DNA of 61,242 nt, taken from Pseudomonadota bacterium (lineage in GTDB: Bacteria; Pseudomonadota; Alphaproteobacteria; Rickettsiales; UBA1997). The DNA is taken from assembly GCA_040384945.1 (NCBI GenBank), contig JAZKII010000058.1, forward strand, positions 1-61,242, given 5' to 3'. The notes below the pieces were generated by a model. That model worked only from the letters and a program-made list of their open reading frames with translations, was not told the DNA's origin and made no database searches. Below are positions 8,190-47,999 of the stretch, piece after piece (the first letter of the stretch is position 1; every line of letters begins with the position of its first letter). The position numbers and the translations under genes were made by a program.

Positions 8190-8305
8190 AAAATTTTCGA
8201 GGTGTAAATTATCAGCATCAAAAGTGGGGTGATGTAAGAATTTGGCAAGATGCGAATGGTGATGCGCAAACTGATGCAGATGAGTTAAAAACTCTGAGGT
8301 TTGGC
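8190..8305 (+). pseudogene. Remnant of an RTX-family gene
   Basis: aagtggggtgatgtaagaatttggcaagatgcgaatggtgat.. translates to KWGDVRIWQDANGDAQTDADELKTL. It aligns to 10603-10680 of the giant gene (KWSDLRIWQDANGDGVTDAGELKTL). There is no start codon and a stop follows shortly. Confidence 0.7.
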
Positions 8306-8307
8306 CT

Positions 8308-9198
8308 ATGTTAGGTGAATTTTTTTTATTAAAATTTTTAACAAGTCTATTTGGTCTGTTCCTATCTTTTACCTTTGTTTATTTGCCAATCATCTTGGCG
8401 ATAATTGCCTATCGTAGAAAGTGGGGAATAAAAAAATTTCTAAAGAGAGTTGTTGAGTCAGTTACTCTAATAATCACCACTATAATAGTGGTTGTAGGAG
8501 TTTTAGTTTTACTTGGTCATTTTACCGAAATTAAAGACCCAGTAGAAGAAATGATTAATAACCCACAAAAATATAAAAATATGCCATGTTTTGAAGTAGA
8601 ATTTAACAAAGAGAAATACTGTTTTGATAGAAGTAGAGCTTACATTGAGAATAAATATGTAAGTCGCACAACAGGAGAAGATGAGAGTGCTGAAATTTAT
8701 TTCATCCCCAGAATTCTATCAAATTTTCCGATCGAACACAGAGAAGTAAGAGTTTATTTAAAAGTGGATAAGCATCACAGGGATGATGTTAACGAGCCTG
8801 AGTATTTTGTGCGCGGTGCTGTTAAAGACGATTCAAGAGAAGGAAAGGTTTTTAAAAAACTGATTGATAAAGCTAAAGATGGGGAGTTTGTTGAGATAAC
8901 AAAGATGCTAAAGTCTGACTGGTTGCATGGAGGAAAAAAGCATTTTACCGTCATTTTTAACAGCAGAATTGTTTTGAGCTTAATCGCTACATCAAATAAA
9001 TATTTTAAATTCATAGGACAAACTACTTTTCAATCCCCAATCCAAGCAATATACTTTGAATTTCAGTTAGTTTCCAACCAATCAACTCAACAAGAATTTC
9101 TTAAAACCTTGCTTGATGTCGCTCAAGAATTTAACCAATTCTTAACCGATTCAAAAGTTAGCAACCAACCATTATCAACCAACTCAACCACCAATTGA
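8308..9198 (+). CDS. Hypothetical membrane protein (2 N-terminal TM helices), translationally coupled to the RTX gene
   Basis: 296-aa ORF with TM segments LTSLFGLFLSFTFVYLPIILAIIAY and LIITTIIVVVGVLVLLGHF. Its stop is 1 nt before the RTX ATG at 9200. I recognise no family. Confidence 0.55.
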   Translation: MLGEFFLLKFLTSLFGLFLSFTFVYLPIILAIIAYRRKWGIKKFLKRVVESVTLIITTIIVVVGVLVLLGHFTEIKDPVEEMINNPQKYKNMPCFEVEFNKEKYCFDRSRAYIENKYVSRTTGEDESAEIYFIPRILSNFPIEHREVRVYLKVDKHHRDDVNEPEYFVRGAVKDDSREGKVFKKLIDKAKDGEFVEITKMLKSDWLHGGKKHFTVIFNSRIVLSLIATSNKYFKFIGQTTFQSPIQAIYFEFQLVSNQSTQQEFLKTLLDVAQEFNQFLTDSKVSNQPLSTNSTTN

Positions 9199-9199
9199 T

Positions 9200-22057: not shown

Positions 22058-22066
22058 AGATGAATT

Positions 22067-23326
22067 ATGAATTTTCTTCAGGTTCGTTTTTCATTTATAA
22101 TCTGTCTTACATTATTTACATATAATGATGTTTTGGCGACCAACTTGCGCGATGCCATTGATACTGCTCAAGTTAATAATCGTAATATAAAACTTGAGCA
22201 AATCAGGCTTAATTCGGTAAAGACTGAAAAAACCAGGGCAATTTCTGAGTTTCTACCAAATGTCAGTGCCAATGCCGGATATGGACAAAGAAACAGCTAT
22301 TATTCAGGTCAAACTTATGATCGTTCCACCAAACAAAAAACCGAAGAAATAAAACTGGAACAACCAATTTTTGATGGGTTGCATTCAGTTTCGAAATATC
22401 ATGAAGCTAACTATAAAATAAAATCTGGCAGTGCTAAAACTTCTGACAAAGTTCAAGAGGTTTCATTGGGCGCGGTGCAGAGTTATTGCAATCTTTTTCG
22501 CTATCAAGAACTCTCAAAAATTCATGAAGAAAATAAAGAACTTGGGTCTAAATTTCTGGCATTGGTAAGTCGCAGAAAAGAAGCCAGAATCATCGATCAA
22601 GCTGATATCATTAAATTTACTTACGAAGCATCTCTTACCGAAGAGAAATATCTCGATTCCTTAAATCGCCTCAACAAAGCCAAATTTGATTATCAAAATA
22701 TTATTGGCCAACTTGATGAAAACCTTATCACTCCCGAAATTACCGAAGAAGAATTTACCAAAGATAGAATTCTCGAATCAGCGTTGGCCAATAATCACAA
22801 TATAAAATCTTACCATTACAACTATCTTGCTTCCAAAGCTGCTTACAACGCCGAGCAATCAAACTTTTTGCCCAAAGTTTCATTGACTGCTTCAGCAAGT
22901 AAGCAGGAGAAAGTTGTTTACCTCAACAACCAAGATCTCAATCAACAATCAGTTTTCTTAAATCTTTCGGTGCCGATTTTTCAAAAGGGTGTGGAATATG
23001 CCAATGTCAGTAAAGCCGGATATGATCGCGATGCGGCAAAAGAAGAATTTGAAATCACCCGCGATAATGTCATCAAGGAAGTTAATCAGGCGCTGGAAGA
23101 ATATCGCTTTTTTTCCGAGATGAATAAAAGCAACAAAAAGCTTTTCGAGCTGGCTAAAAATCGTGCTGATATTTTTATCGCCAGATCAAATTTAAAAGTT
23201 GAAGATCCAATCGAAGTAATACGCGCCAAGATCGAAGCCAATGACAGAAAAATAAATTATATCGATTCCCAAATGGATTTGGTTATCGTTCACTACAAGA
23301 TCAAATATTTTTTGGGAGAAATATGA
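22067..23326 (+). CDS. tolC: TolC-family type I secretion outer-membrane protein
   Basis: Signal peptide, then LRDAIDTAQVNNRNIKLEQIRL. The protein is 419 aa with two internally similar halves. It lies immediately downstream of the RTX gene and upstream of the ABC/MFP genes. Confidence 0.8.
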   Translation: MNFLQVRFSFIICLTLFTYNDVLATNLRDAIDTAQVNNRNIKLEQIRLNSVKTEKTRAISEFLPNVSANAGYGQRNSYYSGQTYDRSTKQKTEEIKLEQPIFDGLHSVSKYHEANYKIKSGSAKTSDKVQEVSLGAVQSYCNLFRYQELSKIHEENKELGSKFLALVSRRKEARIIDQADIIKFTYEASLTEEKYLDSLNRLNKAKFDYQNIIGQLDENLITPEITEEEFTKDRILESALANNHNIKSYHYNYLASKAAYNAEQSNFLPKVSLTASASKQEKVVYLNNQDLNQQSVFLNLSVPIFQKGVEYANVSKAGYDRDAAKEEFEITRDNVIKEVNQALEEYRFFSEMNKSNKKLFELAKNRADIFIARSNLKVEDPIEVIRAKIEANDRKINYIDSQMDLVIVHYKIKYFLGEI

Positions 23327-23331
23327 GAAAT

Positions 23332-23362
23332 AAGGGAATAGGGAATAGGGGGTAGGAAATAG
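23332..23362. repeat. Array of 4 GGGAATA-type heptamers upstream of the four-helix-bundle gene
   Basis: aagggaatagggaatagggggtaggaaatag is complementary in register to the C-rich array at 23730-23762. Confidence 0.8.
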
Positions 23363-23363
23363 T

Positions 23364-23720
23364 ATGGCTATAGAAAGGTTTGAGGATATTAAGGCTTGGC
23401 AGAAGGCTCAGGATTTGGCTGTGGATGTTTATTTTATATTCGGAAAAATAAAAGATTTTGGATTTAGAGATCAAATTTGTCGTGCAGTAGTTTCGGTATC
23501 AAGCAATATAGCAGAAGGATTTAGCCGTAGTAGTAATGCCGATTTTGTTCGTTTCCTTTACATAGCAATTGCTTCCTGCAATGAAGTAAGATCATTGCTT
23601 TATCTGGCTCAAAGACTTGATTATTTACCACCAGAAAGAAAAGACTATTTAACAAAAAATGCAGACGAAGTGGCAAAAATTATCAAAGGATTGATAAAAT
23701 CAATGACAAAAAAATCATGA
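23364..23720 (+). CDS. Four-helix-bundle protein (23S rRNA intervening-sequence protein / Avd-like family)
   Basis: 118 aa with FEDIKAWQKAQDLAVDVY..FRDQICRAVVSVSSNIAEGFSR.S..DFVRFLYIA.AS..E....L.LA. This is the classic pattern of this family. Confidence 0.8.
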   Translation: MAIERFEDIKAWQKAQDLAVDVYFIFGKIKDFGFRDQICRAVVSVSSNIAEGFSRSSNADFVRFLYIAIASCNEVRSLLYLAQRLDYLPPERKDYLTKNADEVAKIIKGLIKSMTKKS

Positions 23721-25417
23721 CCAAACCAACCTATCCCCTATCTCCTATTCCCTATTTCCTAGCATGCTGCAAGCGTGCTTTCTACTTTTGTCTGCTATTT
23801 AGTTTTTTTATCAGCATTTTTACTCTCGCTTCTTCAGTTTATTCGATGCAGGTTTTGGATCGGGTTTTGAGTAGTAATAGTTTTGAAACGCTGCTTTATC
23901 TCACCATTATTGTTTTGGCCTTTTTGATTTTTCTGGGAATTTTAACTCAAGTTCGATCAACAATATTTTTACATATTTCCAATTGGCTCGATGAAAAATT
24001 GTCGCCGGTTTTATTCAATAGCAGCATCGAAGCGCAAGGCTCAAATAAAAATATCAGCAGCCAAAATATGCGCGATTTACAAACCATTAAAGGCTTTATT
24101 TCCGGTCCCAATCTGGCAGTGTTGTTTGATGCGCCTTTTGCGATTGTTTACTTTCTCATGATTTTTTTCATTCACTGGATCAACGGATTAATTACTTTAG
24201 TTGGTGGATTGGTAATGTTAAAAATGGCTTACATTAACGAAAAAACCACCAAGGAATTGATTGATAAAACTAACCAAATGCAGTCTGAAGTGCTGCGGGA
24301 TTTTGAGATTATTTCTTCCAATTCTGAAGTGATTAATGCGATGGGAATGAAAGGAAATGTGCGCGGAAATTGGCAGGCTGGTAATGATGAATTGCGCAAA
24401 GCTTCAGCGGATTTGGCCACTCTTACCAATCGAATTTCTACAATTTCCAAAACACTTAGAATGGCGCTGCAAACTTTAACAATGGCCTCAAGTGCAATTT
24501 TAGTGATGTTTAACAAAATGTCTTCCGGTGGAATTATCGCCACTTCAATTTTAGCCGGTAAAGCGCTGGCGCCATTTGATAATGCTATTGGACTTTGGAA
24601 ATCATTTAAAACAACCAAAGCCGCTTATCTGCGTTTGAATGAATCGCTAAAAAATTATGTTGAAGATAAAGGGAAAATAGAACTCCCAATTCCAACGGGA
24701 GAAATTGTGGTTGAGAAGTTGATCTATAAAATTCCCAACTCCGATCGCCTTCTCATCAAAGGCGTTTCTTTCAAGATTAATCCGAGTGAAGTAATCGGAA
24801 TTATTGGTCCAACCGGCAGCGGGAAAACTACTTTAGCCCGGCTTTTAGTTGGTGTTTTAAAGCCTAGTTCAGGAATTGTAAAAATTGATGGCGCCAATCT
24901 TTTTGATCAGGATTTAGAAAAAACCGGCAAACATATCGGCTATTTGCCGCAAGATGTTGAGTTGTTTAAAGGCTTGGTAAAACATAATATCGCCAGAATG
25001 AATAAAGAAGCCCAAGCCGAAGAAATCATCAAAGCCGCAAAATTTTGCGATGTTCATGAAATTATTTTATCACTATCGCAAGGCTACGAAACAGTGATTG
25101 AAAAAGATGCTGCAAATTTATCGGCGGGACAAAAGCAAAGAATTGCTTTGGCTCGTGCTTATTTTGGCGATGTAAAATTTGTGGTTCTTGACGAGCCAAA
25201 TTCCAACCTTGATGCGGAAGGAGAAAATGCTTTAAATAATGCAATTCTTCGCGCCAAAGAAAATGCCATCACAACTGTTATAATTACTCACCGTACTTCA
25301 GCAATTTCAATATGCGATAAAGTGATGCTGTTAAAAGATGGCGAAGTAAAAGCATTTGATAATGCGGATAAGATTTTAGGAAAATCATCGCAAGCAGCTT
25401 TGGGAGTAGGGGCATGA
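23717..25417 (+). CDS. Type I secretion ABC transporter, PrtD/AprD-like (no N-terminal C39/CLD domain)
   Basis: SMQVLDRVLSSNSFETL lies in TM1. Walker A GPTGSGKTT, signature LSAGQKQRIALARA and Walker B VVLDEPNSNLD are present. It is 566 aa and shares a 4-nt ATGA overlap with the previous gene. Confidence 0.9.
   Translation: MTKPTYPLSPIPYFLACCKRAFYFCLLFSFFISIFTLASSVYSMQVLDRVLSSNSFETLLYLTIIVLAFLIFLGILTQVRSTIFLHISNWLDEKLSPVLFNSSIEAQGSNKNISSQNMRDLQTIKGFISGPNLAVLFDAPFAIVYFLMIFFIHWINGLITLVGGLVMLKMAYINEKTTKELIDKTNQMQSEVLRDFEIISSNSEVINAMGMKGNVRGNWQAGNDELRKASADLATLTNRISTISKTLRMALQTLTMASSAILVMFNKMSSGGIIATSILAGKALAPFDNAIGLWKSFKTTKAAYLRLNESLKNYVEDKGKIELPIPTGEIVVEKLIYKIPNSDRLLIKGVSFKINPSEVIGIIGPTGSGKTTLARLLVGVLKPSSGIVKIDGANLFDQDLEKTGKHIGYLPQDVELFKGLVKHNIARMNKEAQAEEIIKAAKFCDVHEIILSLSQGYETVIEKDAANLSAGQKQRIALARAYFGDVKFVVLDEPNSNLDAEGENALNNAILRAKENAITTVIITHRTSAISICDKVMLLKDGEVKAFDNADKILGKSSQAALGVGA
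23730..23762. repeat. Array of 4 TATYCCC-type heptamers, the inverted partner of 23332-23362, inside the ABC gene 5' end
   Basis: cctatcccctatctcctattccctatttcctag is translated as YPLSPIPYFL at the N-terminus of the ABC transporter. Confidence 0.8.
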
Positions 25418-26652
25418 AGATAGGAAAAATCGAATCAAAAATTGCGGAAAATTCTATTAATTACGGAGTTAAATCCCTGATTCTTTTTGCGGTAATTTTT
25501 CTGGGCTGGGCGGCGTTTTTACCAATTCAATCTGCTTCAATTGCGGATGGTGTTATTGTGCTCGATTTCAATCGCAAAAACATTCAGCATTTGGAAGGTG
25601 GCATCATTGATCAGATTCTGGTTAAAGAAGGACATATTGTAAATGAGGGAGATGTTTTGCTTTATCTTCACGACATCAGAGCCAAAACCGAGCAGCAGAT
25701 TTTAAAAGAAAGATTGTGGGCGATGCAGCTACAAAAAGAGCGCCTCGAAGCTGAAAAAGAAAATAAACAAAATTTGAATCTGGAGAATTTTTTCTCGGAA
25801 GTCGGGGAATTGGCGCAAGATGATAATTCCAAATTGCAGGAAATTGCCGCGAATCAATTAAGGCTTTTCAAATCAAGAAGTGGTAAGAGAAAAGGGGAAA
25901 TAAAAGTTTTGGAGAAGAAGCTGAAATCAGCGGAAACGAGGTTAAGGCTTTTTCAAACAGAACTCAGCTTAATCAAACCGCTGGTTGAGGAAAATAATTT
26001 ACCGATTTTGCGGGAATTGGATTTGCAGAAATCAATCGCTCAAGCCGAAGAAGAAGCTGAAACAGCAAAATTGCAAATCGCCAATTACCAAAATAGCGAT
26101 TTGTCGGATACTCTAAAAGAAATCAAAGAAAGCGATATGGAAATCGTTGGTCTTTATAACCAACTTGCAGCCTCAAAAGATGTTTTAAAAAGATCAGCAA
26201 TTAAATCTCCGGTGTCGGGAAAGGTGATGAATATTAAATATCACACGATTGGCGCCGTTGTTCCTCCGGGCGGCGAAATTATGAATATCGTTCCGCAACA
26301 TGAAGAGCTAATTATTGAAGCCAAAATAAAGCCTCAAGACATTGATAATGTTGTCGTGGGAATGAAATCAAAAATTCAACTTACTGCTTATAAAGGCAAA
26401 AAAGTTCCAAAAATTAATGGCGAAGTAATTAATGTTGCGCCAGATATTTTAACCAACGAACAGACCAGAGAATCTTATTTCTTAGCCAGAGTCTCCATCA
26501 GCAAAAAAGACATCGAAAAACTCAAAAGCAAAGTTGAACTTTACCCTGGAATGCCCGCGCAAGTCTTCATCATAACCGGATCGCGGTCTCTAGTTTCTTA
26601 CATGTTTACACCAATTTCAGATTCAGCTTATAAGGCGTTTAGGGAAGAATAA
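25414..26652 (+). CDS. HlyD-family type I secretion membrane fusion protein
   Basis: One N-terminal TM helix, then DGVIVLDFNRKNIQHLEGGII..ILVKEGHIVNEGDVLL (lipoyl-like block). A long coiled coil follows, then a C-terminal beta domain with PGMPAQVFI. It overlaps the ABC gene by 4 nt. Confidence 0.9.
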   Translation: MKIGKIESKIAENSINYGVKSLILFAVIFLGWAAFLPIQSASIADGVIVLDFNRKNIQHLEGGIIDQILVKEGHIVNEGDVLLYLHDIRAKTEQQILKERLWAMQLQKERLEAEKENKQNLNLENFFSEVGELAQDDNSKLQEIAANQLRLFKSRSGKRKGEIKVLEKKLKSAETRLRLFQTELSLIKPLVEENNLPILRELDLQKSIAQAEEEAETAKLQIANYQNSDLSDTLKEIKESDMEIVGLYNQLAASKDVLKRSAIKSPVSGKVMNIKYHTIGAVVPPGGEIMNIVPQHEELIIEAKIKPQDIDNVVVGMKSKIQLTAYKGKKVPKINGEVINVAPDILTNEQTRESYFLARVSISKKDIEKLKSKVELYPGMPAQVFIITGSRSLVSYMFTPISDSAYKAFREE

Positions 26653-26757
26653 TCGCAGCACTTTAAAAGCAAAATTGCGCGAACTTATTGAAATGAAAAA
26701 AATTAAAACTGAAGTGTGGTTTATGAAATTTTTTAGAAAAAATTAAAATATAAAATT

Positions 26758-26932
26758 ATGCAAATCATCTGCAAAGCCAGTTACCAAGATTTAGATTCTA
26801 TTGTAAAAATTTGTTCTGCATCCAAATTATAATCGGATTTCAGTAAATTTTCATGAGAAAAATGGTTTTATGAAAATGGCTGAGTTGAAAGAAACCGACA
26901 GGATGGTTGGGGTATTTGTAAAAAAATTATGA
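26758..26932 (+). pseudogene. Internally deleted GNAT acetyltransferase remnant
   Basis: A GNAT-like N-terminus MQIICKASYQDLDSIVKICSASKL runs into a stop. A GNAT-like C-terminus NRISVNFHEKNGFMKMAELKE..VGVFVKKL follows. The core is missing. Confidence 0.5.
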
Positions 26933-26990
26933 GAAAAAAAAGGTGTCAAATCTCATCACAGTAGAAGAGCTCTATGGTCTCGAAATTTTT

Positions 26991-27243
26991 TAATGCGAAG
27001 AAATATCCGCTGAACCAAATCCTTGAACATCAAGCTTGGCATGGGTTGGTAAAAATTTTACGCAGGCTTCAAAAATTTCTACGCGATTTTCTCTTTTTAA
27101 CATTTCATCAAGTTTTGCTGTCACTTTTATTTGTGGGAGTAGCAATTGTGATGCCGGTGATTTTGACTTATACCGCTTTTTCTTATCATGTATTTCGCGG
27201 GAAGTCTTCGCATGAGAATTTGTATTAGAGTGTGATTCAAACC
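26991..27243. pseudogene. Chimeric scar: copy of the rnd 3' end (26991-27119, antisense) fused to a copy of the cydB 3' end (27117-27243)
   Basis: 26991-27119 aligns to 35620-35748 with 9 mismatches in 129 nt. 27117-27243 aligns to 7824-7950 with 8 mismatches in 127 nt, all synonymous. The junction shows gct microhomology. Confidence 0.9.
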
Positions 27244-27295
27244 TGTGAAAAAAGGTTCTGACATTGATTTAAATAAAGAATTGTCGGAGTGTCGA

Positions 27296-27319
27296 GATTT
27301 GACAACTTTTCACCTTTTT
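27296..27319. repeat. Left 24-bp inverted repeat flanking the ankyrin gene
   Basis: The reverse complement of gatttgacaacttttcaccttttt matches 28423-28446 at 23 of 24 positions. Confidence 0.85.
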
Positions 27320-27398: not shown

Positions 27399-28424
27399 GT
27401 GGAAAAAAATACTTCGTCGAAAAAACCAGATCTATCAATAAAGATCTTACCCGCGGATTCTAACGATCCTCAAACTAAAAATATTACCAAATACAATTAT
27501 ACTCCAGAAAATTTCCCTCGTCTCCCAGCTCCTCTAAGAGGAGTACTCTACGACAAGGATGAATCTGAGAGGTATAATGATGAGGTTGATAAAAGACAAA
27601 ATAGATTTAGGGAGTGGAAAAAAGGTCGTGTTGTGACAAAAAAAGAGATGCTAGAGATGGATGATGGTACAAAAGAGTTTTTCGCTGATGTGCTGGATCT
27701 AGAGAGAACAATTACAAGATATTCGCGATTGCCAATTGTTCTTGCAGCAAGACAGGGTGATTTCGAAAAGGTTAAAGATATTTTAACAAAAACGGCTCAA
27801 ATACCTACTCCTAACACCCACATTATAATTGGAAAGCACTACGCCCTAGAAGCAGCGGTACAAGAAAACAATTGGGATGTAGCCAATTTACTTTTGTTGG
27901 AAGGAGCTTCTGTTGAATTTTCTTCTGATGAAAAACACTCTACACTTTTGATGCAAGCAATTGAGCGTGAAGATTCTGAAGCTTTGGCATTTCTAATTTC
28001 ACACAAAGCAAATCCTAATTGCGTTAATCCCGACAACAAAACCGCCCTGCAACTCGTTGCTGAAAAAAACAATCCCCAACTTTTTTGTCAGTTGGTTTCG
28101 TTAGTATTGAATGAGCAAATCAAGAAAGCAGAAGAATTTACTAATCAAACCGACAAGAAAGAAGAATTTACTGAGGAAGCCGTCAAAAAAGAAAATTGGG
28201 CAAACAGAGAAGATTGGAAAATATTACAAAACGAATTTTCTAACCCAAAATTAGGCGAAGCCAACTTATTAGCCGTAACAGAAATTTTGCCACAGGGAGA
28301 TTTGTTAGATTCGATTAGGCAAACATTGGCTGACCTTCGTGCTAAAACAGGAAGTTCAGTAACTTCAGCACACGCGGTAATTGTGAGCAACATCTCTAAA
28401 GACACTAAATTAACACTTCCTTAA
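27399..28424 (+). CDS. Ankyrin-repeat protein (candidate host-targeted effector)
   Basis: ANK-like repeats: LPIVLAARQGDFEKVKDIL, ALEAAVQENNWDVANLLLLEGASV, TLLMQAIEREDSEALAFLISHKANPN, KTALQLVAEKNNPQL. The ORF has a GTG start and no signal peptide. Confidence 0.75.
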   Translation: MEKNTSSKKPDLSIKILPADSNDPQTKNITKYNYTPENFPRLPAPLRGVLYDKDESERYNDEVDKRQNRFREWKKGRVVTKKEMLEMDDGTKEFFADVLDLERTITRYSRLPIVLAARQGDFEKVKDILTKTAQIPTPNTHIIIGKHYALEAAVQENNWDVANLLLLEGASVEFSSDEKHSTLLMQAIEREDSEALAFLISHKANPNCVNPDNKTALQLVAEKNNPQLFCQLVSLVLNEQIKKAEEFTNQTDKKEEFTEEAVKKENWANREDWKILQNEFSNPKLGEANLLAVTEILPQGDLLDSIRQTLADLRAKTGSSVTSAHAVIVSNISKDTKLTLP

Positions 28425-28446
28425 AAAGGTGAAAAGGTGTCAAATC
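28423..28446. repeat. Right 24-bp inverted repeat flanking the ankyrin gene (overlaps its stop codon)
   Basis: aaaaaggtgaaaaggtgtcaaatc. A partial third copy (aaaaggtgtcaaatct) lies at about 26937-26952. Confidence 0.85.
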
Positions 28447-28501
28447 TTAAAAACTTGAAAATTAATCGAAAAGCTACCTTTGTTTTGTTTCTAGCCTCAA
28501 A

Positions 28502-28761
28502 CTTCATTAGAACCAATTGGTGATGTAGTTTCTTACAGCGCTTATACTTGGGGCCGAGATAGCGGAGCTCTTTACCAAAGTCCTTATTCTTTAAGCACAC
28601 AGCCGGATAGATATCATTTTAAACTTACAAATGGTGCGACAGTTGATATTGGAAATGATGGTAAAACTATTACTTCCAGAATGACAAAGTTGCGTGATCT
28701 TTTCCCCGATGAAATCATTCCCAATTATGATTTAGCTTCCGGCTCGCAATCAACCAATTCG
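28502..28761 (+). pseudogene. 260-bp internal fragment copied from the 32261-35575 gene
   Basis: Aligns colinearly to 33801-34060 with about 4 mismatches. It encodes SLEPIGDVVSYSAYTW..GSQSTNS and has no start codon of its own. Confidence 0.9.
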
Positions 28762-28873
28762 CAATTGAGACAGTTTATATTTTTCGTTGGAAGAAATATG
28801 GCAAACTACTTGTAAGGTATTAATAACGGATTTAAGACTTAGAAAAATGTCTTCTTCACCAATCAAAATTAAA

Positions 28874-29455
28874 ATGAAAAACAAATCCTTAAAATCTCTT
28901 TTAGCAGCGCTCATTCTTTTATCATCGTTAATGTTGGCAGATGCATCTCTTGCTCAAATCAGCAAATCATCAATTCAGAATAGTGAACAATTGGTTGAAG
29001 ATCCTGATCTTAAACTTTCGATTAAGGAATTGAGAAAAAAATATCCGATTGGTTGGTTGAAAAAGAAATATGGTGATCCTGAAAAATATTATGATTTTTG
29101 TAGTACAATAGATTATGTTGAACCGGCAGAAGAAGCACCGCCCAAAAATTTAGTATGTAATTTTCAGGCTATAAAATATCCATTTAAAACATTTTCTGAT
29201 TCTGAAATCAGAAGTGTTGTTGTGAATCTTAAAGTAGATGAGTTTGATTTCAGAATCGAACAAATTGCTTTAATTGCTTTAGAATATTTTGAAAAGACAC
29301 CCGAAAGTTCCTTAACCTCTAAGGAAAAATTATTGAGGAATTTTATTTACTCGGATCAGGTAACAACTCTTTTTAAGAAATTAAGAAACTGTATAGTGAT
29401 TAAGCATGTAAGGTATAATTGTGCTAAACCTTTGGGTAATTCACAAAAACTATAA
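28874..29455 (+). CDS. Secreted-protein family member P1 (Sec signal peptide, unknown function)
   Basis: MKNKSLKSLLAALILLSSLMLADASLAQ signal. Family motifs DPDLKLSIKELRKKYPIGWLKKKYGD, PKNLVCNF and LRNFIYSDQV are present. The start was chosen by analogy with P2, where an upstream stop excludes the longer form. Confidence 0.7.
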   Translation: MKNKSLKSLLAALILLSSLMLADASLAQISKSSIQNSEQLVEDPDLKLSIKELRKKYPIGWLKKKYGDPEKYYDFCSTIDYVEPAEEAPPKNLVCNFQAIKYPFKTFSDSEIRSVVVNLKVDEFDFRIEQIALIALEYFEKTPESSLTSKEKLLRNFIYSDQVTTLFKKLRNCIVIKHVRYNCAKPLGNSQKL

Positions 29456-29460
29456 ACCGA

Positions 29461-29589
29461 AATTCCGGGGACAGTTTACCTAATTAAAATTTTCATTTTG
29501 AAGCAAATACCTGAGAATCATTTGTAATGCATTGGTAACAAATTTAAAACTTAGAAAAATGTCTTCTTCACAAATCACAAACTAAAAAA
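29461..29589 (+). repeat. Conserved ~125-bp leader/promoter repeat (copy 1) upstream of P2
   Basis: aattccggggacagtttacctaattaaaattttcattttgaagcaaatacctgagaatcatttgtaatgcattggtaacaaatttaaaacttagaaaaatgtcttcttca.. It carries ttgaag (29498-29503) and tgtaat (29523-29528) hexamers spaced 19 nt apart. Confidence 0.8.
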
Positions 29590-30375
29590 ATGACAAACAA
29601 ATCTTTAAAATCTTTTTTAACAGCGCTCACTCTTTTATCATCGTTAATGTTTGCGCATGCAGCTTTTGCTCAAATCAGCAAATCACAAATTCAGAATAGT
29701 GAACAATCGGTTGAAGATCCTGATCTTAAACTTTCGATTGAGGAATTGAGAAAAAAATATCCAATTGAGTGGTTTGATTCAAAATTTGGGGAGTATTATA
29801 AATGTGCGACTGATTCAGAAGGGGAGTATGACGATCCAAAATTAATTTGCCGATTAACTATAAATAAAAATTATTTTAAAAATAAATTACGTGATGGATC
29901 TAAAATAAAATTATTTGATCCATTGAGACAATTAAATGAATCACAAATCAAAAGCATAATTGTTCATCATAGCAATAAAGTGTATGACGATGGTTACCCA
30001 GATATTAGGCTAGATAATATTTTAGAAATTTTAGAAATACAAACTGCAGATACAAAAAACACAAATCCTCTAAAAACAAGAATTAAAGATTTTCTCTATT
30101 CCGATGTTGCTGTTAATTCATTTAAAAATCTTTCTTGTGAATCACTATCTAAATTTGATGTCAATAACTCTCATTACGATTCATTAGCCTTAGAATATTT
30201 TAGAAAAATATATTTTCAAACGAGTGGGAATGCTGATAAATTAGAATATTTTAGAAAAATATATTTTCAACCGAGCATGCTTGATGATGATTTGAAGGAA
30301 TGCCTCCCCCCTAAGCAGCGTAGTCTAATTAGAAAGAAACTTTTAGAGGAATTAAAAACTAAAATTAGGGAATAA
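29590..30375 (+). CDS. Secreted-protein family member P2, directly upstream of the small M23 peptidase
   Basis: MTNKSLKSFLTALTLLSSLMFAHAAFAQ signal and DPDLKLSIEELRKKYPIEW motif. There is an internal duplication LEYFRKIYFQ(T/P)S. The stop is 3 nt before the next ATG. Confidence 0.8.
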   Translation: MTNKSLKSFLTALTLLSSLMFAHAAFAQISKSQIQNSEQSVEDPDLKLSIEELRKKYPIEWFDSKFGEYYKCATDSEGEYDDPKLICRLTINKNYFKNKLRDGSKIKLFDPLRQLNESQIKSIIVHHSNKVYDDGYPDIRLDNILEILEIQTADTKNTNPLKTRIKDFLYSDVAVNSFKNLSCESLSKFDVNNSHYDSLALEYFRKIYFQTSGNADKLEYFRKIYFQPSMLDDDLKECLPPKQRSLIRKKLLEELKTKIRE

Positions 30376-30378
30376 CTA

Positions 30379-30771
30379 ATGACAAAATATATAGAATTAT
30401 CTCTTCCTGTACCGGAAGGTACAAAAATAAATAGTGAGTATGGCCAGCGTCAGAAGGGATCTGGGTATCACTATGGAATAGATTTTAATGTTTTACCTAA
30501 AACAGAAATTACCTCTGCAGCACCCGGAACAGTAATTAGAATTATTCGTAATCATAAAGATTTTGGAAACGTTATAGTAATAAAACATGCTGAAGATCAG
30601 GCAACTTTATATGCTCATTTAAGCAGTATTAAAACTGGAATTAATGACCCGGTAACAGAATCTACTCTTATTGGATTATCTGGTTCAACCGGAAGAAGTG
30701 AGGGACCTCATTTACATTTTGAAGTAATTGAAGGAGCAAACAATAATTCAGGGGACAGTTTACCTAATTAA
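30379..30771 (+). CDS. Minimal leaderless M23 (LytM-domain) metallopeptidase, 130 aa
   Basis: HxxxD motif in GYHYGIDF and HxH motif in GPHLHFEV, with YAHLSS between them. There is no N-terminal signal peptide. Confidence 0.85.
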   Translation: MTKYIELSLPVPEGTKINSEYGQRQKGSGYHYGIDFNVLPKTEITSAAPGTVIRIIRNHKDFGNVIVIKHAEDQATLYAHLSSIKTGINDPVTESTLIGLSGSTGRSEGPHLHFEVIEGANNNSGDSLPN

Positions 30772-30869
30772 AATTTTCATTTTGAAGCAAATACTTGAAA
30801 ATTATTTGTAATGCATTGGTAACAAGTTTAAAACTTAGAAAAATGTCTTCTTCACCAATCAAAATTAAA
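30751..30869 (+). repeat. Leader repeat (copy 2) upstream of P3; its 5' end supplies the M23 gene C-terminus and stop
   Basis: ggggacagtttacctaattaaaattttcattttgaagcaaatacttgaaaattatttgtaatgcattggtaacaagtttaaaacttagaaaaatgtcttcttca.. Confidence 0.8.
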
Positions 30870-31454
30870 ATGAAAAACAAATCTTTAAAATCTCTTTTAG
30901 CGGCTCTAACACTTTTATTATCGCTAATGTTTGCGCATGAAGCTATTGCTCAAACTGATAAGTCATCAGCACAAAATAGTGCACAATATGACATTGATGA
31001 TTCAGATCTTTCAATTGAGGAACTAAAGAAGAAATATCCGCCAAGTTTATTGGATAAAAAGAATAAGGCTTATAAGCCAGGGCAGAAAGTTGATATTAAA
31101 GATTACTCAATTGCTGAGGTAAAAGCAGCGTTTCTGAATGCGGATAAGAATTTTATTTCGAGGATACCAATGAATGAAATTCCAAGAACAGCTTCAGGAA
31201 AATATGATTCTTATATTTCTGATAATGATGTAATTGCGCATAGTCAACTTGAGCTCGATATAATTGATGCATCTTGTAATAAATTTGGATTGAGGGTTTA
31301 TACCGCGCCAAAAAAATATGAGATACTTCAATCGTTTATTTTTTCTTCAGATAAAATTCGAATTCATTCTATGCGCTTCCTTCCACAAAAAACCGAAGTA
31401 TGTCTTTTTACCAATGATCCTTTAGGAGTTGAAGATCATAACGACTATACATAA
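30870..31454 (+). CDS. Secreted-protein family member P3 (divergent)
   Basis: MKNKSLKSLLAALTLLLSLMFAHEAIAQ signal and DDSDLSIEELKKKYPPSLL motif. The remainder is divergent. Confidence 0.7.
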   Translation: MKNKSLKSLLAALTLLLSLMFAHEAIAQTDKSSAQNSAQYDIDDSDLSIEELKKKYPPSLLDKKNKAYKPGQKVDIKDYSIAEVKAAFLNADKNFISRIPMNEIPRTASGKYDSYISDNDVIAHSQLELDIIDASCNKFGLRVYTAPKKYEILQSFIFSSDKIRIHSMRFLPQKTEVCLFTNDPLGVEDHNDYT

Positions 31455-31493
31455 TCAATATTTTAATCTCATGCCGTTCTTCCTCACTCGCAA

Positions 31494-31621
31494 AATTCCG
31501 GGGACAGTTTACCTAATTAAAATTTTCATTTTGAAGCAAATACCTGAGAATCATTTGTAATGCATTGGTAACAAATTTAAAACTTAGAAAAATGTCTTCT
31601 TCACAAATCACAACTAAAAAA
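31494..31621 (+). repeat. Leader repeat (copy 3) upstream of P4
   Basis: Near-identical to copy 1. It differs by a 1-nt indel just upstream of the A7 run that precedes the ATG. This indel puts the upstream MSSSQIT.. ATG in frame. Confidence 0.8.
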
Positions 31622-32245
31622 ATGACAAACAAATTTTTAAAATCTCTTTTAGCAGCGCTCATTCTTTTATCATCGCTAATGTTTGCGCATGCAGCTATTG
31701 CTCAAATCAGCAAATCAAAGATTCAAAATAGTGAACAATTAGGTGAAGATCCTGATTTAAAACTTTCTATTAAGGAATTGAGAAAAAAATATCCGATTGG
31801 TTGGTTGAAAAAGAAATATGGTGATTCCAAGCATCCATCGTGTGGGAATTCTGATGGAGCTTTTGAATATGAAGGTCCGATTCCAAAAAATCTTATATGC
31901 TCTTTTTTTACTAATGATATGTATTCCAAAAGCGATACATCCAAACTTATACCCTCATTCTCATTAGATCTTGAATTTTTCTCAAACAATCAAATCAAAA
32001 GTGCATTGATTGAGTATAACAATCTTTGGAAACAACACAGAGCTAGTGATGATGAAAGAGTAAGGGAAATAGTTATACTTGCGCTTCTGACTTTTGAAGA
32101 AAAAACAAATACTCTTACCGAAAATCAAAAAGAGCTAAAAAACTTTATTTATAAAAGCCAATTACTTCCAGTTTTACAAGATGCGATAGAGTGTAAGTAT
32201 GTCAATAGTGCCTACCAAACAAAAATTACCTGCCCAGTAAAATAA
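31622..32245 (+). CDS. Secreted-protein family member P4, directly upstream of the large M23 protein
   Basis: MTNKFLKSLLAALILLSSLMFAHAAIAQ signal. DPDLKLSIKELRKKYPIGWLKKKYGD, PKNLICSF and LKNFIYKSQL motifs are present. It ends 15 nt before the next gene. Confidence 0.8.
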   Translation: MTNKFLKSLLAALILLSSLMFAHAAIAQISKSKIQNSEQLGEDPDLKLSIKELRKKYPIGWLKKKYGDSKHPSCGNSDGAFEYEGPIPKNLICSFFTNDMYSKSDTSKLIPSFSLDLEFFSNNQIKSALIEYNNLWKQHRASDDERVREIVILALLTFEEKTNTLTENQKELKNFIYKSQLLPVLQDAIECKYVNSAYQTKITCPVK

Positions 32246-32260
32246 TTTATTTAATAATCT

Positions 32261-35200
32261 ATGCCAAGCTTAAAACTTCAATATCCACCGTTAAGCACTT
32301 TTGTCATTAGCAGCGAAAAGGGTCCAAGAATTAGTCCAACCACCAATATACCAACTGTTCACGAGGGAATAGATTTTGCAATTGCAGATGGAACGAATTT
32401 ATATAATGCTCATGATGGAACAGTGATATTTTCTGGAACATCTGTGGGATATGGAAATACAATTGTAATACAGGATAAGATTAGTGGGGAATCAACTCTA
32501 TATGCTCATCTAAGTGCAATATTTTTTCACAAGAGCGATCCTATAACTGGTAAAACCCCAATTGGTACAACAGGTAATAGTGGAACTAGCGCATATCACC
32601 TTCATTTTGAAGTCTTAAGTAAAGAAATTTCTGATAACTTAGCATCAAGCTCTAGTGGAAAAATACCAAAGTCAGGCCGTCTCAACCCACGCTCTTACAT
32701 TGCTGCTTCCCCTTTTGCATCAATGCTCTCAACTGAAGTACATAGTAAGGAATTAGGCTTTGGCACAAGAGAAGGAGATAGTCGTTCCAACACCATGGTT
32801 CGCGACAATGTTGGAACATATTATGGCACTCAAATGGTCTTTGATGGCAAAGAAGGATATGATACATATAAACTTAAACTTTCTTACACCGGCCAGAGAA
32901 TTGTAAAAAATACAAAAGACACTCATATAGTTCAAAGCCAAGATGCTATAAGTGATGCTGATTTAGATGGCAAAATAATAATCGATACCGGATCTCAAAA
33001 TATTCTTCTTTCCGGCAATGCTCTTCCAAAAACCGGAGTTTTAGGAGAGATTATAGCGGGAGAATGGACGTTAGATGGGTTAAATCTTTTACAAGATGGA
33101 GATGATCTAGTTGCGACTAAACTTGGTGTAAAACTTGCTGATTTTAAAGGAATTACAAATCCTAAAGTTCCAACTATTCCTATCAAAAACTTCCCTTTCT
33201 CCAATTCCCGCGGTGGCTTTGGAATTACATTAGGGAAAAAAGCTGATCTAAGTTTAGGCGAAGATGTTTTCAGCCTGACATTAACCGATTCTTATTTGCC
33301 ACAAGGCGCATTTGCTGTGGCTTCATCCGACAAAGGATTATTTGGTTCTTTGGCGATGCTTGATTCTCAAGGCTCGGAATTACCTGTTTCTCACAGCATT
33401 GGAGTTTTCGATAATTTCGGAAATCAATTAGCAACTCACGATGTTGAAACTGTAGTTAAATCATCTGTTGATGCTGAGATGTTAACTCCAGAAATTGGAG
33501 TAGGGATTAGAATCGGAGCTGGATATTCTTCCGGTGGATATGTTGTATTTCCGATTGCAGAAAGTGGCTATATTGCTGGCGGAAGTTTGCAATCCAGAGT
33601 TGGCGCACTTTTAACTGATGCTTCAGGTAATGTTTTAGCAGCCAATATTTACGACAACACCAATTCCCAAACCCAAAATAAAGTCGCTCGCAATGGTGCA
33701 ATCTTGGTCGGCAAAGATGATCCCAGTAAATTATATTTTAGCTACTCACTAGAAAATATCGGCCGCGATGTCGGAACTATGGTTTATCAAATTGACCCAA
33801 CTTCATTAGAACCAATTGGCGATGTAGTTTCTTACAGCGCTTATACTTGGTCTAGAGATAGCGGAGCTCTTTACCAAAGTCCTTATTCTTTAAGCACACA
33901 GCCGGATAGATATCATTTTAAACTTACAAATGGTGCGACAGTTGATATTGGAAATGATGGTAAAACTATTACTTCCAGAATGACAAAGTTGCGTGATCTT
34001 TTCCCCGATGAAATCATTCCCAATTATGATTTAGCTTCCGGCTCGCAATCAACCAATTCGGAATTAGCACAACAAATTTTAACTTTGGGTGATGCAACAA
34101 TTCTTGATGTTGTTGAAAATCCTAATTCTGTAGTGGCAGTTTTAAATCTTGATCCAACTACAAATCCCAATTCAAAAGTAACTTTCTCTGCTTTTGATTC
34201 TTCACAGGTTGCAGCTTATGCAACTGATTCGAGCCAATATAGCATTGATGCGCTTTTAAGCGGTGAAGCCAAAACTTCTGATATGCAATTGGTTTATGGC
34301 GCAGCGCGAACCAGAAGATTAACTGATGGCGTTGAGGATGTTACCGATCCTTATTATTATTCTTATGGCAGCAACGCTACCTATTCAGATTATTATTACG
34401 GGTCAAATTATGGCAATTATACGGATGATTCTGTTGCCGATGATGATGAATTACCTGCTTTAATCTCATATCCTTACACTTTTCTTGAACTGCCGAATAA
34501 CCAGACTGTAGTTTTAGTTGGTGTAAATGGCACGGAACTTGCACAATCTCCGTATAGTTTTTTTCTGACTAGTGAAAATATAACTCATGCCCCATCAAGC
34601 TATCCAAGCGGGCAGCCAACTCCCAACCCTTTTGCAATTTCCAGAGCAGAACCAACAAGTCAGCCATCAAATCAGCCGACAGTTCCACCTTCAATTCAAC
34701 CAAGTACACAACCAACCGGCGAACCTTCATCACAACCAACTTATCTTCCGACGGTAGGAGAGATAATAAGCACAAGTCCAACTTCATTACCATCGTCTGC
34801 TCAGCCAACTGGTCAGCCTTCAATTCAACCAAGTACACAACCAACCGGCGAACCTTCATCACAACCAACTTATCTTCCGACGGTAGGAGAGATAATAAGC
34901 ACAAGTCCAACTTCATTACCATCGTCTGCTCAGCCAACTGGTCAGCCTTCAATCCAACCAAGCAGAAAACCATTTGCTCATCCAAGTACAATTCCATCCT
35001 ATAAACCAGCGGCGATTCCATCTTTTAAGCCAACTAGACCAAGCGTGCAGCCAACCACAGAGGCTTCGGCACAATTAAATTCTAATCCCAGCGCGCAGCC
35101 AAGTTCTAGGCCAACAAATAATCCTTCATTAGATCCAACTCATCATCCAATTGCCGGCGATTTATCTGTAAGTCCTACATCACAACCAAGTGTTAATCCA

Positions 35201-35575
35201 AGTTCACAACCAAGTCAGAAACCAAGCAGGAATTTAAGAACTGCGAGTCCGACAAGTTCTAGCCCGGTGAGTGACAAGCCAATCAGCATCTATCCAACAG
35301 CAATTCCGACAGTTATGGGAACAGGATTTCCAACAATCAATTCTACTTTTAATCAATCTTTGCCGCAATTTCCAAATCAAATTCCAACTCATAATCAAAA
35401 TTCCAATTTTATGGAAAGCCCGGGAGGGATTGCTGTTGCGGCTACAGCAGCATTGTTATTAACAGTAGTTGGGTTGAAATGGGTTTTTAGAAAAGGTGAG
35501 CCAAAGGTGAGCCCAGAGAAAGCTTACGCATCTCAGGTAGAGCAGAGTAATGGGATAGGATTAGGAAAAGGCTAA
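32261..35575 (+). CDS. 1104-aa protein: N-terminal M23 peptidase domain, central unknown domain, Tyr/Asp-rich and P/S/T/Q-rich repeats, C-terminal TM anchor
   Basis: VHEGIDFA (HxxxD) and AYHLHFEV (HxH), with no signal peptide. PS.QPT-type repeats run from about nt 34585 to 35400. A TM helix GGIAVAATAALLLTVVGLKWVF lies at about 35423-35491 and is followed by a basic tail. Confidence 0.8.
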   Translation: MPSLKLQYPPLSTFVISSEKGPRISPTTNIPTVHEGIDFAIADGTNLYNAHDGTVIFSGTSVGYGNTIVIQDKISGESTLYAHLSAIFFHKSDPITGKTPIGTTGNSGTSAYHLHFEVLSKEISDNLASSSSGKIPKSGRLNPRSYIAASPFASMLSTEVHSKELGFGTREGDSRSNTMVRDNVGTYYGTQMVFDGKEGYDTYKLKLSYTGQRIVKNTKDTHIVQSQDAISDADLDGKIIIDTGSQNILLSGNALPKTGVLGEIIAGEWTLDGLNLLQDGDDLVATKLGVKLADFKGITNPKVPTIPIKNFPFSNSRGGFGITLGKKADLSLGEDVFSLTLTDSYLPQGAFAVASSDKGLFGSLAMLDSQGSELPVSHSIGVFDNFGNQLATHDVETVVKSSVDAEMLTPEIGVGIRIGAGYSSGGYVVFPIAESGYIAGGSLQSRVGALLTDASGNVLAANIYDNTNSQTQNKVARNGAILVGKDDPSKLYFSYSLENIGRDVGTMVYQIDPTSLEPIGDVVSYSAYTWSRDSGALYQSPYSLSTQPDRYHFKLTNGATVDIGNDGKTITSRMTKLRDLFPDEIIPNYDLASGSQSTNSELAQQILTLGDATILDVVENPNSVVAVLNLDPTTNPNSKVTFSAFDSSQVAAYATDSSQYSIDALLSGEAKTSDMQLVYGAARTRRLTDGVEDVTDPYYYSYGSNATYSDYYYGSNYGNYTDDSVADDDELPALISYPYTFLELPNNQTVVLVGVNGTELAQSPYSFFLTSENITHAPSSYPSGQPTPNPFAISRAEPTSQPSNQPTVPPSIQPSTQPTGEPSSQPTYLPTVGEIISTSPTSLPSSAQPTGQPSIQPSTQPTGEPSSQPTYLPTVGEIISTSPTSLPSSAQPTGQPSIQPSRKPFAHPSTIPSYKPAAIPSFKPTRPSVQPTTEASAQLNSNPSAQPSSRPTNNPSLDPTHHPIAGDLSVSPTSQPSVNPSSQPSQKPSRNLRTASPTSSSPVSDKPISIYPTAIPTVMGTGFPTINSTFNQSLPQFPNQIPTHNQNSNFMESPGGIAVAATAALLLTVVGLKWVFRKGEPKVSPEKAYASQVEQSNGIGLGKG
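34688..34945 (+). repeat. Exact tandem duplication, 2 x 129 bp (43 aa), in the proline-rich region
   Basis: The unit PSIQPSTQPTGEPSSQPTYLPTVGEIISTSPTSLPSSAQPTGQ occurs twice, with copies starting at 34688 and 34817. A third copy starts and then diverges. Confidence 0.9.
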
Positions 35576-47281: not shown

Positions 47282-47992
47282 CTATCTCGCTTCAATTCGT
47301 AATTGGCAAACTGGGCTAATTGTACTTTGATTATATTCACCAAGCTTCACACATTCATCATTCATCGGAACATTTAACATATCACCACCAAGCGCAATAA
47401 TTCTGCCTTTTTGCGGATTGCCATCATCCATTTTTTTATCAAACAAAAATGCTTCTTCACTTTTCAGACTGCGATTATTTGTGTAAAGGCGATCAACATC
47501 GGCAAATTTAAAACCGATTTGGTAAAAAGTTTTTCCTTCATTTCCAAAAGCTACAATGCCGGAATTTTCTCCGATTTTACTTAATGGAAAAGTGCTGCCG
47601 TTTTTGGCATCGCCATCATCTTGGCCATCATAATTTTCATTGATCATTTTTGTTTTTGATAAATGAAGCCAGAACTTGGTTATTTCACCATTAGCCATGA
47701 GGATTTGCTGCACTCTATCTGTAATTATATTATCGTTATTACCATCGGTGCTAGATTCGGTGATACCATAAGCAACGGTGCTTTTAAGATCTCCTGGAAG
47801 TGCTTGGTATTTTTGAGTAAAATTATTGAGAGCAGCATCATATTTTTTGATCTGCATGATGAGGGATTTTACATCATTTTCTTTGATTATTTTTTTAACA
47901 AAGAAAATGCCGGCAATAGCGATGCTGATAATACAAAGTGTGATTAAAAATTCGATGATGGTAAAAGCGTTTTTAGAATTTTTATTTTTCAT
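47282..47992 (-). CDS. Type IV pilin / pseudopilin-like protein
   Basis: Prepilin-type N-terminus MKNKNSKNA|FTIIEFLITLCIISIAIAGIFFV with Glu at +5. A C-terminal Cys pair (NDECVKLGEYNQSTISPVC) resembles a pilin D-region. The start lies 7 nt after the stop of the 2424-aa gene. Confidence 0.7.
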   Translation of the reverse strand: MKNKNSKNAFTIIEFLITLCIISIAIAGIFFVKKIIKENDVKSLIMQIKKYDAALNNFTQKYQALPGDLKSTVAYGITESSTDGNNDNIITDRVQQILMANGEITKFWLHLSKTKMINENYDGQDDGDAKNGSTFPLSKIGENSGIVAFGNEGKTFYQIGFKFADVDRLYTNNRSLKSEEAFLFDKKMDDGNPQKGRIIALGGDMLNVPMNDECVKLGEYNQSTISPVCQLRIEAR

Positions 47993-47999
47993 AAATTTT

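Follow-up and report, generated by a model that had tools for sequence, protein, structure and literature searches.

Organization of the array

The element examined here is an array of genes at positions 28500-35575 of contig JAZKII010000058.1 (GenBank assembly GCA_040384945.1), a stretch of 61,242 nucleotides (nt) from an uncultured freshwater bacterium, the whole of which is referred to below as the window. The array is strain-specific and is encoded on the forward strand. It contains tandem genes for small exported proteins of one family, here called P, two of which directly precede genes for leaderless proteins with an M23 peptidase domain. The last and largest gene, M23large (32261-35575), encodes a protein of 1104 amino acid (aa) residues in which an N-terminal M23 head is carried by a scaffold made up of a central domain (CEN), a stalk, and a C-terminal transmembrane helix. 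The first feature of the array is a fragment of CEN (28500-28766), which is 98% identical to positions 33799-34065 inside M23large and represents the remnant of a displaced upstream gene of the M23large type.

Four P genes lie between these two, each preceded by a copy of a conserved leader of approximately 130-144 nt, the copies being 79-90% identical. Copy 1 (28767-28873), delimited by its repeat family and by alignment, precedes P1 (28874-29455), an orphan of 193 aa whose open reading frame (ORF) also opens at 28787 and contains an alternative in-frame ATG at 28847. Copy 2 (29454-29589; like copies 3 and 4, delimited from repeat families) precedes P2 (29590-30375; 261 aa), which is extended by a C-terminal tail and is the presumed cognate of the head type found in M23small (30379-30771; 130 aa). 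Within this tail, there is an in-frame tandem duplication of 51 nt (two copies, 30190-30291), repeating “LEYFRKIYFQ.” M23small is cut off at copy 3 (30738-30869), which leads into P3 (30870-31454; the ORF also opens at 30795), a 194-aa orphan of a subtype of its own. Copy 4 (31487-31621) is followed by P4 (31622-32245; the ORF also opens at 31565), a protein of 207 aa that NCBI annotates as 217 aa from an upstream ATG, and the presumed cognate of the M23large head. A fifth member, P5 (57419-58102), lies on the reverse strand at a distance from the array, and is an orphan with no M23 gene downstream.

The initial annotation of this sequence had placed P2 and P4 3 and 15 nt, respectively, ahead of M23 genes with intact HxxxD and HxH motifs, and both the ORFs and the PF01551 matches bear this out. 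A fused or readthrough P-M23 product was considered and rejected: in both pairs the two genes are in the same frame, but a single TAA stands between P2 and M23small, and between P4 and M23large there are three. Because of these intervening stops, and because the contig employs all of TAA, TAG, and TGA as stop codons, P and M23 are separate genes. A scan for promoters and terminators returned nothing beyond the expectation from shuffled sequence. Thirty-seven related loci (designated by L numbers) were collected, and profiles of P, M23, and CEN were mapped onto all their ORFs.

The P proteins

The mature forms of P1, P2, P4, and P5 are mutually homologous over their full length (BLASTP E 5e-10 to 8e-35), P1 and P4 being the closest (E 8e-35), while P5 matches P1 and P4 with E ~1e-25. 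By BLAST, P3 has only the N-terminal motif in common with the others (E ~1e-6); hidden Markov model (HMM) comparison adds a weak match at the C-terminus. All five possess a hydrophobic N-terminus, the maximum 12-residue Kyte-Doolittle score (KD12) being 1.9-2.8 (2.6 for P1), with an AxA cleavage site. The signal peptides close in AxA-Q and the first Cys occurs no earlier than approximately residue 70, so that a lipobox Cys is absent. The mature proteins contain two or four Cys residues (four in P1). The proposal that P1-P4 in tandem, together with P5, are exported paralogs with AxA signals, the array genes standing behind a conserved leader, is thus confirmed by hydrophobicity, repeats, and BLASTP; full-length paralogy within the array holds for P1, P2, and P4, and for P3 it is limited to the N-terminal motif and the weak C-terminal HMM match.

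The family had also been thought undescribed, and no relative was found in Pfam, NCBIfam, or PDB, or with Foldseek. Scans of Pfam and NCBIfam gave no match for P, and its profile recovered only noise among PDB sequences. Database relatives amount to ten word-index matches, and a profile search of 1.84 billion representatives returned 67 clusters. Homologs of P are absent from the 2.9 million viral contigs of IMG/VR, and the plasmids of PLSDB contain neither P nor CEN homologs. The genome matches are metagenome-assembled genomes (MAGs) titled “Rickettsiales bacterium” or “uncultured Rhizobium sp.,” the latter probably mislabeled. Intact orthologs of P1, P2, P3, and P5 occur in other samples at 82-91% identity, including P0004 (P1; 89%, from another sample) and P0137 (P5; 82%). 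An AlphaFold2 model of P4 from a 47-sequence alignment (predicted local distance difference test score [pLDDT] 87.8; predicted template modeling score [pTM] 0.78) is mostly helical, and Foldseek comparison of this model with PDB and with BFVD, a database of predicted viral structures, gave no match (best E >1, template modeling score <=0.25). P would be an immunity-like family with a confidently predicted fold for which there is neither a sequence nor a structural relative.

The N-terminal motif EDPDLKLSIEELRKKYP is invariant in P proteins that are partnered with M23 and is absent from the protein that accompanies a second type of head in L015 (see below). Two observations connect P with DUF4116: database protein P0194 joins DUF4116 repeats to a P3-type C-terminal domain, and in L018 (7159-9887) two DUF4116 genes are located immediately upstream of a P/M23large pair.

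The M23 proteins and the scaffold of M23large

M23small and M23large match PF01551 with 86.2 bits (E 1.7e-24) and 70.3 bits, respectively, against a cutoff of 28.7. Both possess the zinc ligands HYGID/HEGID (HxxxD) and HLHFE (HxH) and the histidine of YAHL, and these zinc-ligand and catalytic residues are invariant across 18 homologous heads. From the profile and the intact motifs, the heads are predicted to be peptidoglycan endopeptidases. Neither protein contains a cysteine. The absence of a signal peptide, as first reported, withstood a search for a cryptic one: neither product has an N-terminal hydrophobic segment (KD12 <=1.05), and neither ORF can be extended upstream because no other start codon lies between its own and the preceding stop.

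The two proteins are not equivalents. The final 10 codons of M23small fall within the leader of the next cassette, and the protein shares 64% identity with the L013 head, which is there attached to a full scaffold. Since its ORF ends inside the next leader repeat, M23small is, by its sequence, a displaced and truncated head and not an independent enzyme. The two P-partnered peptidases of the initial annotation are thereby reduced to one full-length effector, M23large.

The exchangeable head module of M23large comprises aa 1-227 (32261-32941), of which aa 1-135 form the M23 domain (PF01551 E 1.6e-19). CEN extends to approximately aa 790 (32942-34630), is acidic (net charge -32), and lacks Cys. 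It is followed by a stalk of approximately 260 aa (34631-35413) with 20% Pro, 19% Ser, and 12% Thr, which matches the PT repeat PF04886 (E 4.6e-21); within the stalk, there is an in-frame tandem duplication (two copies of 129 nt, 96% identical, 34672-34929). The protein ends with a transmembrane helix (aa ~1052-1078) and a basic tail of about 30 aa (35414-35575). The helix is the sole hydrophobic segment of the protein (19-residue Kyte-Doolittle score 2.05, from aa 1057), and helix and tail are preserved in L018, L008, L010, L012, and P0013. Only six relatives of CEN were found among 5.8 billion proteins, and a phmmer search of PDB with CEN returned nothing. AlphaFold2 modeling of aa 1-800 yielded a pLDDT of 34.7 from a 6-sequence alignment, which was too shallow to give a usable model of CEN.

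P and M23 genes are paired across related loci

The initial annotation had proposed a search of the rest of the genome for further P/M23 pairs, and such pairs occur at related loci. In approximately 20 independent, non-redundant contigs, every P gene for which sufficient downstream sequence is available has behind it a leaderless ORF that opens with an M23 head and runs on into CEN, the overall plan being head, CEN, Pro/Thr stalk, and C-terminal membrane helix. The exceptions to this order are a few orphan P genes. The two genes are separated by 2-56 nt, and in one pair they overlap. Export signals are confined to one partner: each of the 18 P proteins examined possesses a hydrophobic signal at its N-terminus (KD12 1.9-3.5) and 2-10 Cys residues, always an even number, and the related heads have no signal peptide (KD12 <=1.3), most of the large proteins containing 0-2 Cys.

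The type of P also tracks the type of head. P2-type proteins accompany the “LSLPVPEGTKI” head, a pairing that recurs in L013 on a full-length scaffold and in L022, where the M23small-type head has been shortened further, to 72 aa. P3-type proteins accompany “FITHKP” or “FFLTRKP” heads, and P4-type proteins “LQY.PL” heads. Over 20 pairs, the identity matrices of P and head are correlated (r=0.50, Mantel p<=2e-4). We speculate that the invariant motif of P contacts the conserved M23 active site and that the variable remainder of the protein sets head specificity.

Head swapping and cassette replacement

When M23large is aligned with its homologs, the head is 33-49% identical and the downstream part approximately 80%. 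CEN is 69-89% identical to its counterparts in L005, L012, and L013. Against L005 the head is 49% identical and the remainder 69-87%, with one 100-aa bin at 55%; against L012, which has flanking DNA 93% identical to that of the window, aa 1-300 are 33-41% identical and the remainder approximately 80%. Comparison with L014 gives the reverse, a head of 63% identity on a CEN of 25-37%. The heads, which travel with their P types, thus recombine independently of the scaffold.

One replacement can be followed in detail. L037, which represents a sister strain, contains an ortholog of P3 (P0144; 91% protein identity) followed 18 nt on by an M23 head of its own and a CEN like that of the window. By blastn, L037 3309-4007 corresponds to window 30798-31493 (89%) and L037 4645-5096 to window 32942-33393 (80%), which sets a recombination breakpoint relative to L037 at 32942. 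Between these common flanks L037 has 637 nt of head and the window has 1448 nt, consisting of a leader, P4, and a different head. Relative to L037, the window has exchanged an L037-like head for leader, P4, and a new head, and has kept P3. The orphan copies noted initially are therefore illustrated by P3, the ortholog of which is still paired with its own head in L037, and its retention after replacement of the partner head is as would be expected if an immunity gene continued to give protection from relatives.

Displaced pieces are common. Truncated upstream heads and CEN fragments recur in L001, L008, L011, L015, L028, L029, L032-35, and L037; the junction of CEN fragment, leader, and P seen in the window is also present in L011 and L037; and read-through M23::P chimeras are found at related loci.

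A second head on the same scaffold

A leaderless head of approximately 390 aa, unrelated to M23, is attached to the same CEN in L015, L029, L035, L037, and P0163. Its upstream partner in both L015 and L035 is a signal-peptide protein of 232 aa (the two copies are 59% identical), which does not belong to the P family. The signal-peptide protein preceding it in L037 has 299 aa and was not shown to be related to the 232-aa protein. The head carries “vY.D..G.pTIGIG” and scores 21.9 bits with the Pfam GH24 lysozyme family, below the cutoff of 22.3. Its comparison with T4 lysozyme gives a motif match of 22 columns with an hhalign probability of 4.8%, and its profile found nothing in PDB. We tentatively regard it as lysozyme-like. 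A scaffold that bears heads of different kinds, with exported partners that differ accordingly, is the signature of a polymorphic toxin system.

The accessory island and its neighborhood

In L036, a close relative with collinear flanks and 88-91% DNA identity, cydB and an rnd-like exonuclease gene are 4 nt apart. In the window these genes are separated by 27.7 kb (7936-35618), of which the 8.4 kb nearest to the rnd-like gene hold an ankyrin gene and the P/M23 array. The left boundary of this segment is marked by a direct repeat (26991-27227) in which the 3′-end of the rnd-like gene (26991-27127) and that of cydB (27114-27227) are duplicated, the copies being 91% and 90% identical to the ancestral rnd/cydB junction (blastn against L036). 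The P3-type/M23large locus of L012 adjoins the same exonuclease gene. Elsewhere, the P/M23large pair of L005 (1-3621) lies beside genes for a MobA/VirD2-type relaxase, MobC, and an ArdC-like protein, which suggests that it is carried on a mobilizable element; the toxin gene of L008 is interrupted by an IS1595 insertion sequence (IS) element; and the pairs of L017 and L018 are surrounded by housekeeping genes.

The ankyrin-repeat gene region (27399-28424) lies between 25-nt inverted repeats (27295-27319 and 28423-28447; 96% complementary), an arrangement like that of a small mobile cassette, and the related loci yielded no homolog of this segment. The remaining part of the insertion (7936-26990) encodes a 296-aa ORF, a type I secretion system (T1SS) of TolC-like, ABC, and HlyD components, and an RTX protein of 4285 aa with subtilase S8 and P-domain, Big_9/cadherin-like repeats, and RTX repeats. 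This part may be a second island that was added at the same cydB/rnd site. Further away, a 2424-aa protein (48000-55274, reverse strand) contains a single TrbL/VirB6 domain (aa 1187-1392), and is unusually large even by comparison with the RvhB6 paralogs of Rickettsiales; the ORF downstream of it (47282-48034, reverse strand) has a weak prepilin N-methylation motif. Finally, between the GH3 and rnd-like genes, close relatives of the window, such as L036 (7931-9990), carry genes for an AAA_15/AAA_21 ATPase of 467 aa and a protein of 219 aa. The window lacks this pair (corresponding site 36230/36234), which may be a defense system in a second variable slot next to rnd.

Interpretation

We consider it probable that the locus is a polymorphic antibacterial toxin/immunity array of reversed polarity. 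The toxin would be M23large, in which an exchangeable N-terminal endopeptidase head is mounted on a conserved delivery or anchoring scaffold, and which, having no Sec signal, must leave the cell by a dedicated route. Each head type would be paired with its own P, encoded immediately upstream and probably co-transcribed. P would be exported by the Sec pathway to the periplasm, the site of peptidoglycan, where it would bind the cognate head and block it, be that head leaked by the producer or delivered by sister cells; heads reaching the periplasm of a competitor that lacks the matching P would presumably be toxic there. The array may grow by recombination that brings new leader-P-head cassettes into the toxin gene at its 5′-end, with the conserved leader and the conserved CEN serving as homology arms. 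Old P genes (P1, P3, and P5) would then be retained as orphan immunity genes, and old heads would be left as truncated remnants, such as M23small and the CEN fragment. The effector/immunity-like module first proposed for this locus is in agreement with gene order, P/head co-variation, head swapping, and orphan retention.

As to delivery, our guess is that a VirB-type type IV secretion system (T4SS) is the most likely route, because related MAGs are labeled Rickettsiales, the window encodes the 2424-aa VirB6/TrbL protein, and M23large has a basic C-terminal tail. Bacteriocin-like release or a T1SS is nearly as plausible, and is suggested by the acidic, Cys-free body of the protein, the RTX repeats of the L031 homolog, and the nearby T1SS.

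Several points weigh against an interbacterial toxin array. A Pfam scan of M23large returned M23 and PT repeats only, with no XVIPCD, PAAR, MIX, LXG, or TPS domain, and no secretion genes adjoin the pairs in L017 and L018. A basic tail behind the C-terminal helix implies that the topology is N-out, and such a topology is hard to achieve without a signal peptide and is readily explained by neither the T4SS nor the T1SS route. The strong conservation of EDPDLKLSIEELRKKYP is unusual for an immunity protein and could reflect some other shared function, and the co-variation of P and head could also come from plain linkage. Moreover, all the sequences are metagenome assemblies, in which repeats can give chimeric joins.

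Of the other explanations, release of M23large as a contact-independent bacteriocin, by the T1SS or by lysis, with entry into the target periplasm through a receptor bound by CEN, survives best, though we regard it as unlikely. Pesticin and colicin M enter target cells in this manner and have periplasmic immunity proteins; pesticin is a peptidoglycan-degrading muramidase, and its immunity protein is Pim (PMC3390615). An acidic CEN in a wholly Cys-free protein is typical of proteins secreted unfolded, the L031 homolog carries RTX repeats (E 3e-12) right after its head, and in the window an OEP/ABC/HlyD system lies 0.5 kb upstream of the module. However, this T1SS adjoins the 4285-aa RTX protein, its obvious substrate, in a separately bounded part of the insertion; no T1SS genes are found near the pairs in L017, L018, and L014; M23large of the window has no RTX match in Pfam; and a C-terminal membrane helix is foreign to T1SS substrates and colicins.

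It is less likely still that M23large acts on the producer's own wall, as an envelope-anchored autolysin with P as its periplasmic regulator, the array having arisen by duplication and decay. M23 proteins are mostly housekeeping enzymes, the top partial matches in NCBIfam are MepM, ShyA, and DipM (all far under their cutoffs), and helix and stalk resemble an envelope anchor. Such an enzyme might make room for a T4SS or a giant adhesin, or serve cell division, and the genes of the window do include those for a giant RTX adhesin, for the T1SS belonging to it, and for a VirB6-like protein. Yet a close relative with collinear flanks manages without the locus, heads are exchanged between strains while old P genes are kept, and the same scaffold can carry an unrelated head with a different partner. 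Neither the association with mobilization genes and an IS element nor an enzyme without a signal peptide is what wall remodeling would lead one to expect.

Improbable, in our view, is an effector directed at eukaryotes, in which M23large would be tail-anchored in a protist or host membrane and P would be co-secreted or an unrelated exported protein. Its mucin-like Pro/Thr stalk, single C-terminal helix, and basic tail do recall eukaryotic tail-anchored or type I surface proteins, an ankyrin-repeat gene is present in the same inserted segment, and related contigs carry the Rickettsiales label. The host- or organelle-directed alternative raised in the initial annotation is nevertheless not favored, because two unrelated heads, the M23 head and, tentatively, the second (a sub-threshold GH24 match), point to peptidoglycan as the substrate. 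It also offers no role for a head-specific partner exported to the producer's own periplasm, and orphan partners kept after head replacement fit immunity and not co-effectors. A phage-derived lysis cassette (an endolysin with an accessory protein) or non-functional debris of a mobile element is very improbable: endolysins are indeed leaderless peptidoglycan hydrolases and several copies are truncated or frameshifted, but phage genes are absent from the window and the related loci, P has no relative among the viral contigs searched or, as a P4 model, in BFVD, a 1104-aa protein with stalk and membrane anchor is unlike an endolysin, and both the orphan P genes and the full-length genes have been conserved in intact form from sample to sample.

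If the locus is a toxin/immunity array, it and its approximately 20 relatives provide specific toxin/immunity candidates which, although the organisms are uncultured, are open to cloning and testing in E. coli. The concept of the polymorphic toxin would be extended to exchangeable N-terminal heads, with immunity genes and orphans located upstream, and the scaffold of CEN, stalk, and helix, which has no recognized secretion signal, may reveal a new delivery logic. The T4SS of Rickettsiales has been proposed to have been originally, and perhaps to be still, bacteria-killing (Schön et al. 2022, PMC9352585; Verhoeve et al. 2024, PMC11077975). The candidate effectors given in these papers are generic (peptidoglycan-binding-domain proteins and CRCT/A modules), with no such pairs named, and our literature searches found no description of the P/M23large family. 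A bolder reading, which we hold as possible but doubtful, is that the family constitutes an undescribed, mirrored class of polymorphic toxins with immunity proteins of a new fold, and is either the bactericidal cargo hitherto missing for the rvh T4SS or uses a new delivery route; if true, these would be the first concrete effector/immunity pairs for the hypothesis of a bacteria-killing ancestral T4SS in Rickettsiales.

Comparison with known systems

The initial annotation had likened the locus to type VI secretion system (T6SS) effector/immunity pairs and to the X-Tfe/X-Tfi pairs of the Xanthomonas T4SS. The resemblance holds for the upstream partner and the leaderless protein with its enzyme at the N-terminus; XVIPCD, a lipobox, and T6SS markers were not found. 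With Tae/Tai and Tge/Tgi of the T6SS, the locus shares a leaderless peptidoglycan hydrolase and a Sec-exported cognate inhibitor, and M23 domains come up in the literature on T6SS effector sets. T6SS immunity genes are usually located downstream. PAAR, VgrG, Hcp, MIX, FIX, and WHIX are absent from M23large and the window, and a scan of ORFs throughout the 61-kb window and of the L017 and L018 neighborhoods gave no T6SS gene or marker.

Pesticin/Pim and colicin M/Cmi are likewise modular toxins directed at peptidoglycan, with an exchangeable activity domain and periplasmic immunity (PMC3390615). Pesticin, however, has its uptake domains at the N-terminus and its activity domain at the C-terminus, an order that is reversed here, and M23large is much larger than these toxins, possesses a membrane helix, and has no identified receptor-binding or translocation domain.

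The contact-dependent inhibition (CDI) system CdiA-CT/CdiI and the Rhs proteins resemble the array in combining a conserved scaffold with variable, unrelated toxin domains, each with an adjacent partner gene. Displaced toxin fragments and orphan immunity genes in tandem, recombination at conserved junctions, and strain-level variability are also shared (PMC3482391). In those systems the variable toxin domain is C-terminal and its immunity gene follows immediately downstream. The polarity is mirrored here: the toxin domain occupies the N-terminus, its immunity gene comes before it, and the orphans lie upstream of the full-length gene. M23large lacks an N-terminal trafficking domain and RHS or filamentous hemagglutinin repeats, and M23 does not occur in the catalogue of toxin domains in the polymorphic-toxin survey (0 occurrences; PMC3482391).

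The closest functional analog is presumably X-Tfe/X-Tfi. X-Tfe effectors also have an N-terminal enzymatic domain that targets peptidoglycan and no signal peptide, and M23 is among the domains screened as X-Tfe-like (PMC9352585). The X-Tfi immunity gene is usually upstream and co-transcribed, its product is periplasmic, the pairs are dispersed, and truncated effector fragments occur (PMC6536674); here too P is upstream of and co-oriented with M23, and truncated effector fragments are present. The differences lie at both ends of the pair. The C-terminal XVIPCD of X-Tfe (approximately 120 aa, VirD4-binding) is undetected in M23large, which has the stalk, the helix, and the 30-aa tail in its place, and X-Tfi is a lipobox lipoprotein, whereas P has an AxA site for signal peptidase I and no lipobox Cys. 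An X-T4SS comprises 12 subunits, among them a VirB7 with an N0 domain; the one contig examined here encodes a single TrbL/VirB6-domain protein, that of 2424 aa. Finally, the present system, unlike X-Tfe, belongs to an alphaproteobacterial, Rickettsiales-like lineage, with heads exchanged as cassettes on one scaffold and orphans arranged in tandem arrays.

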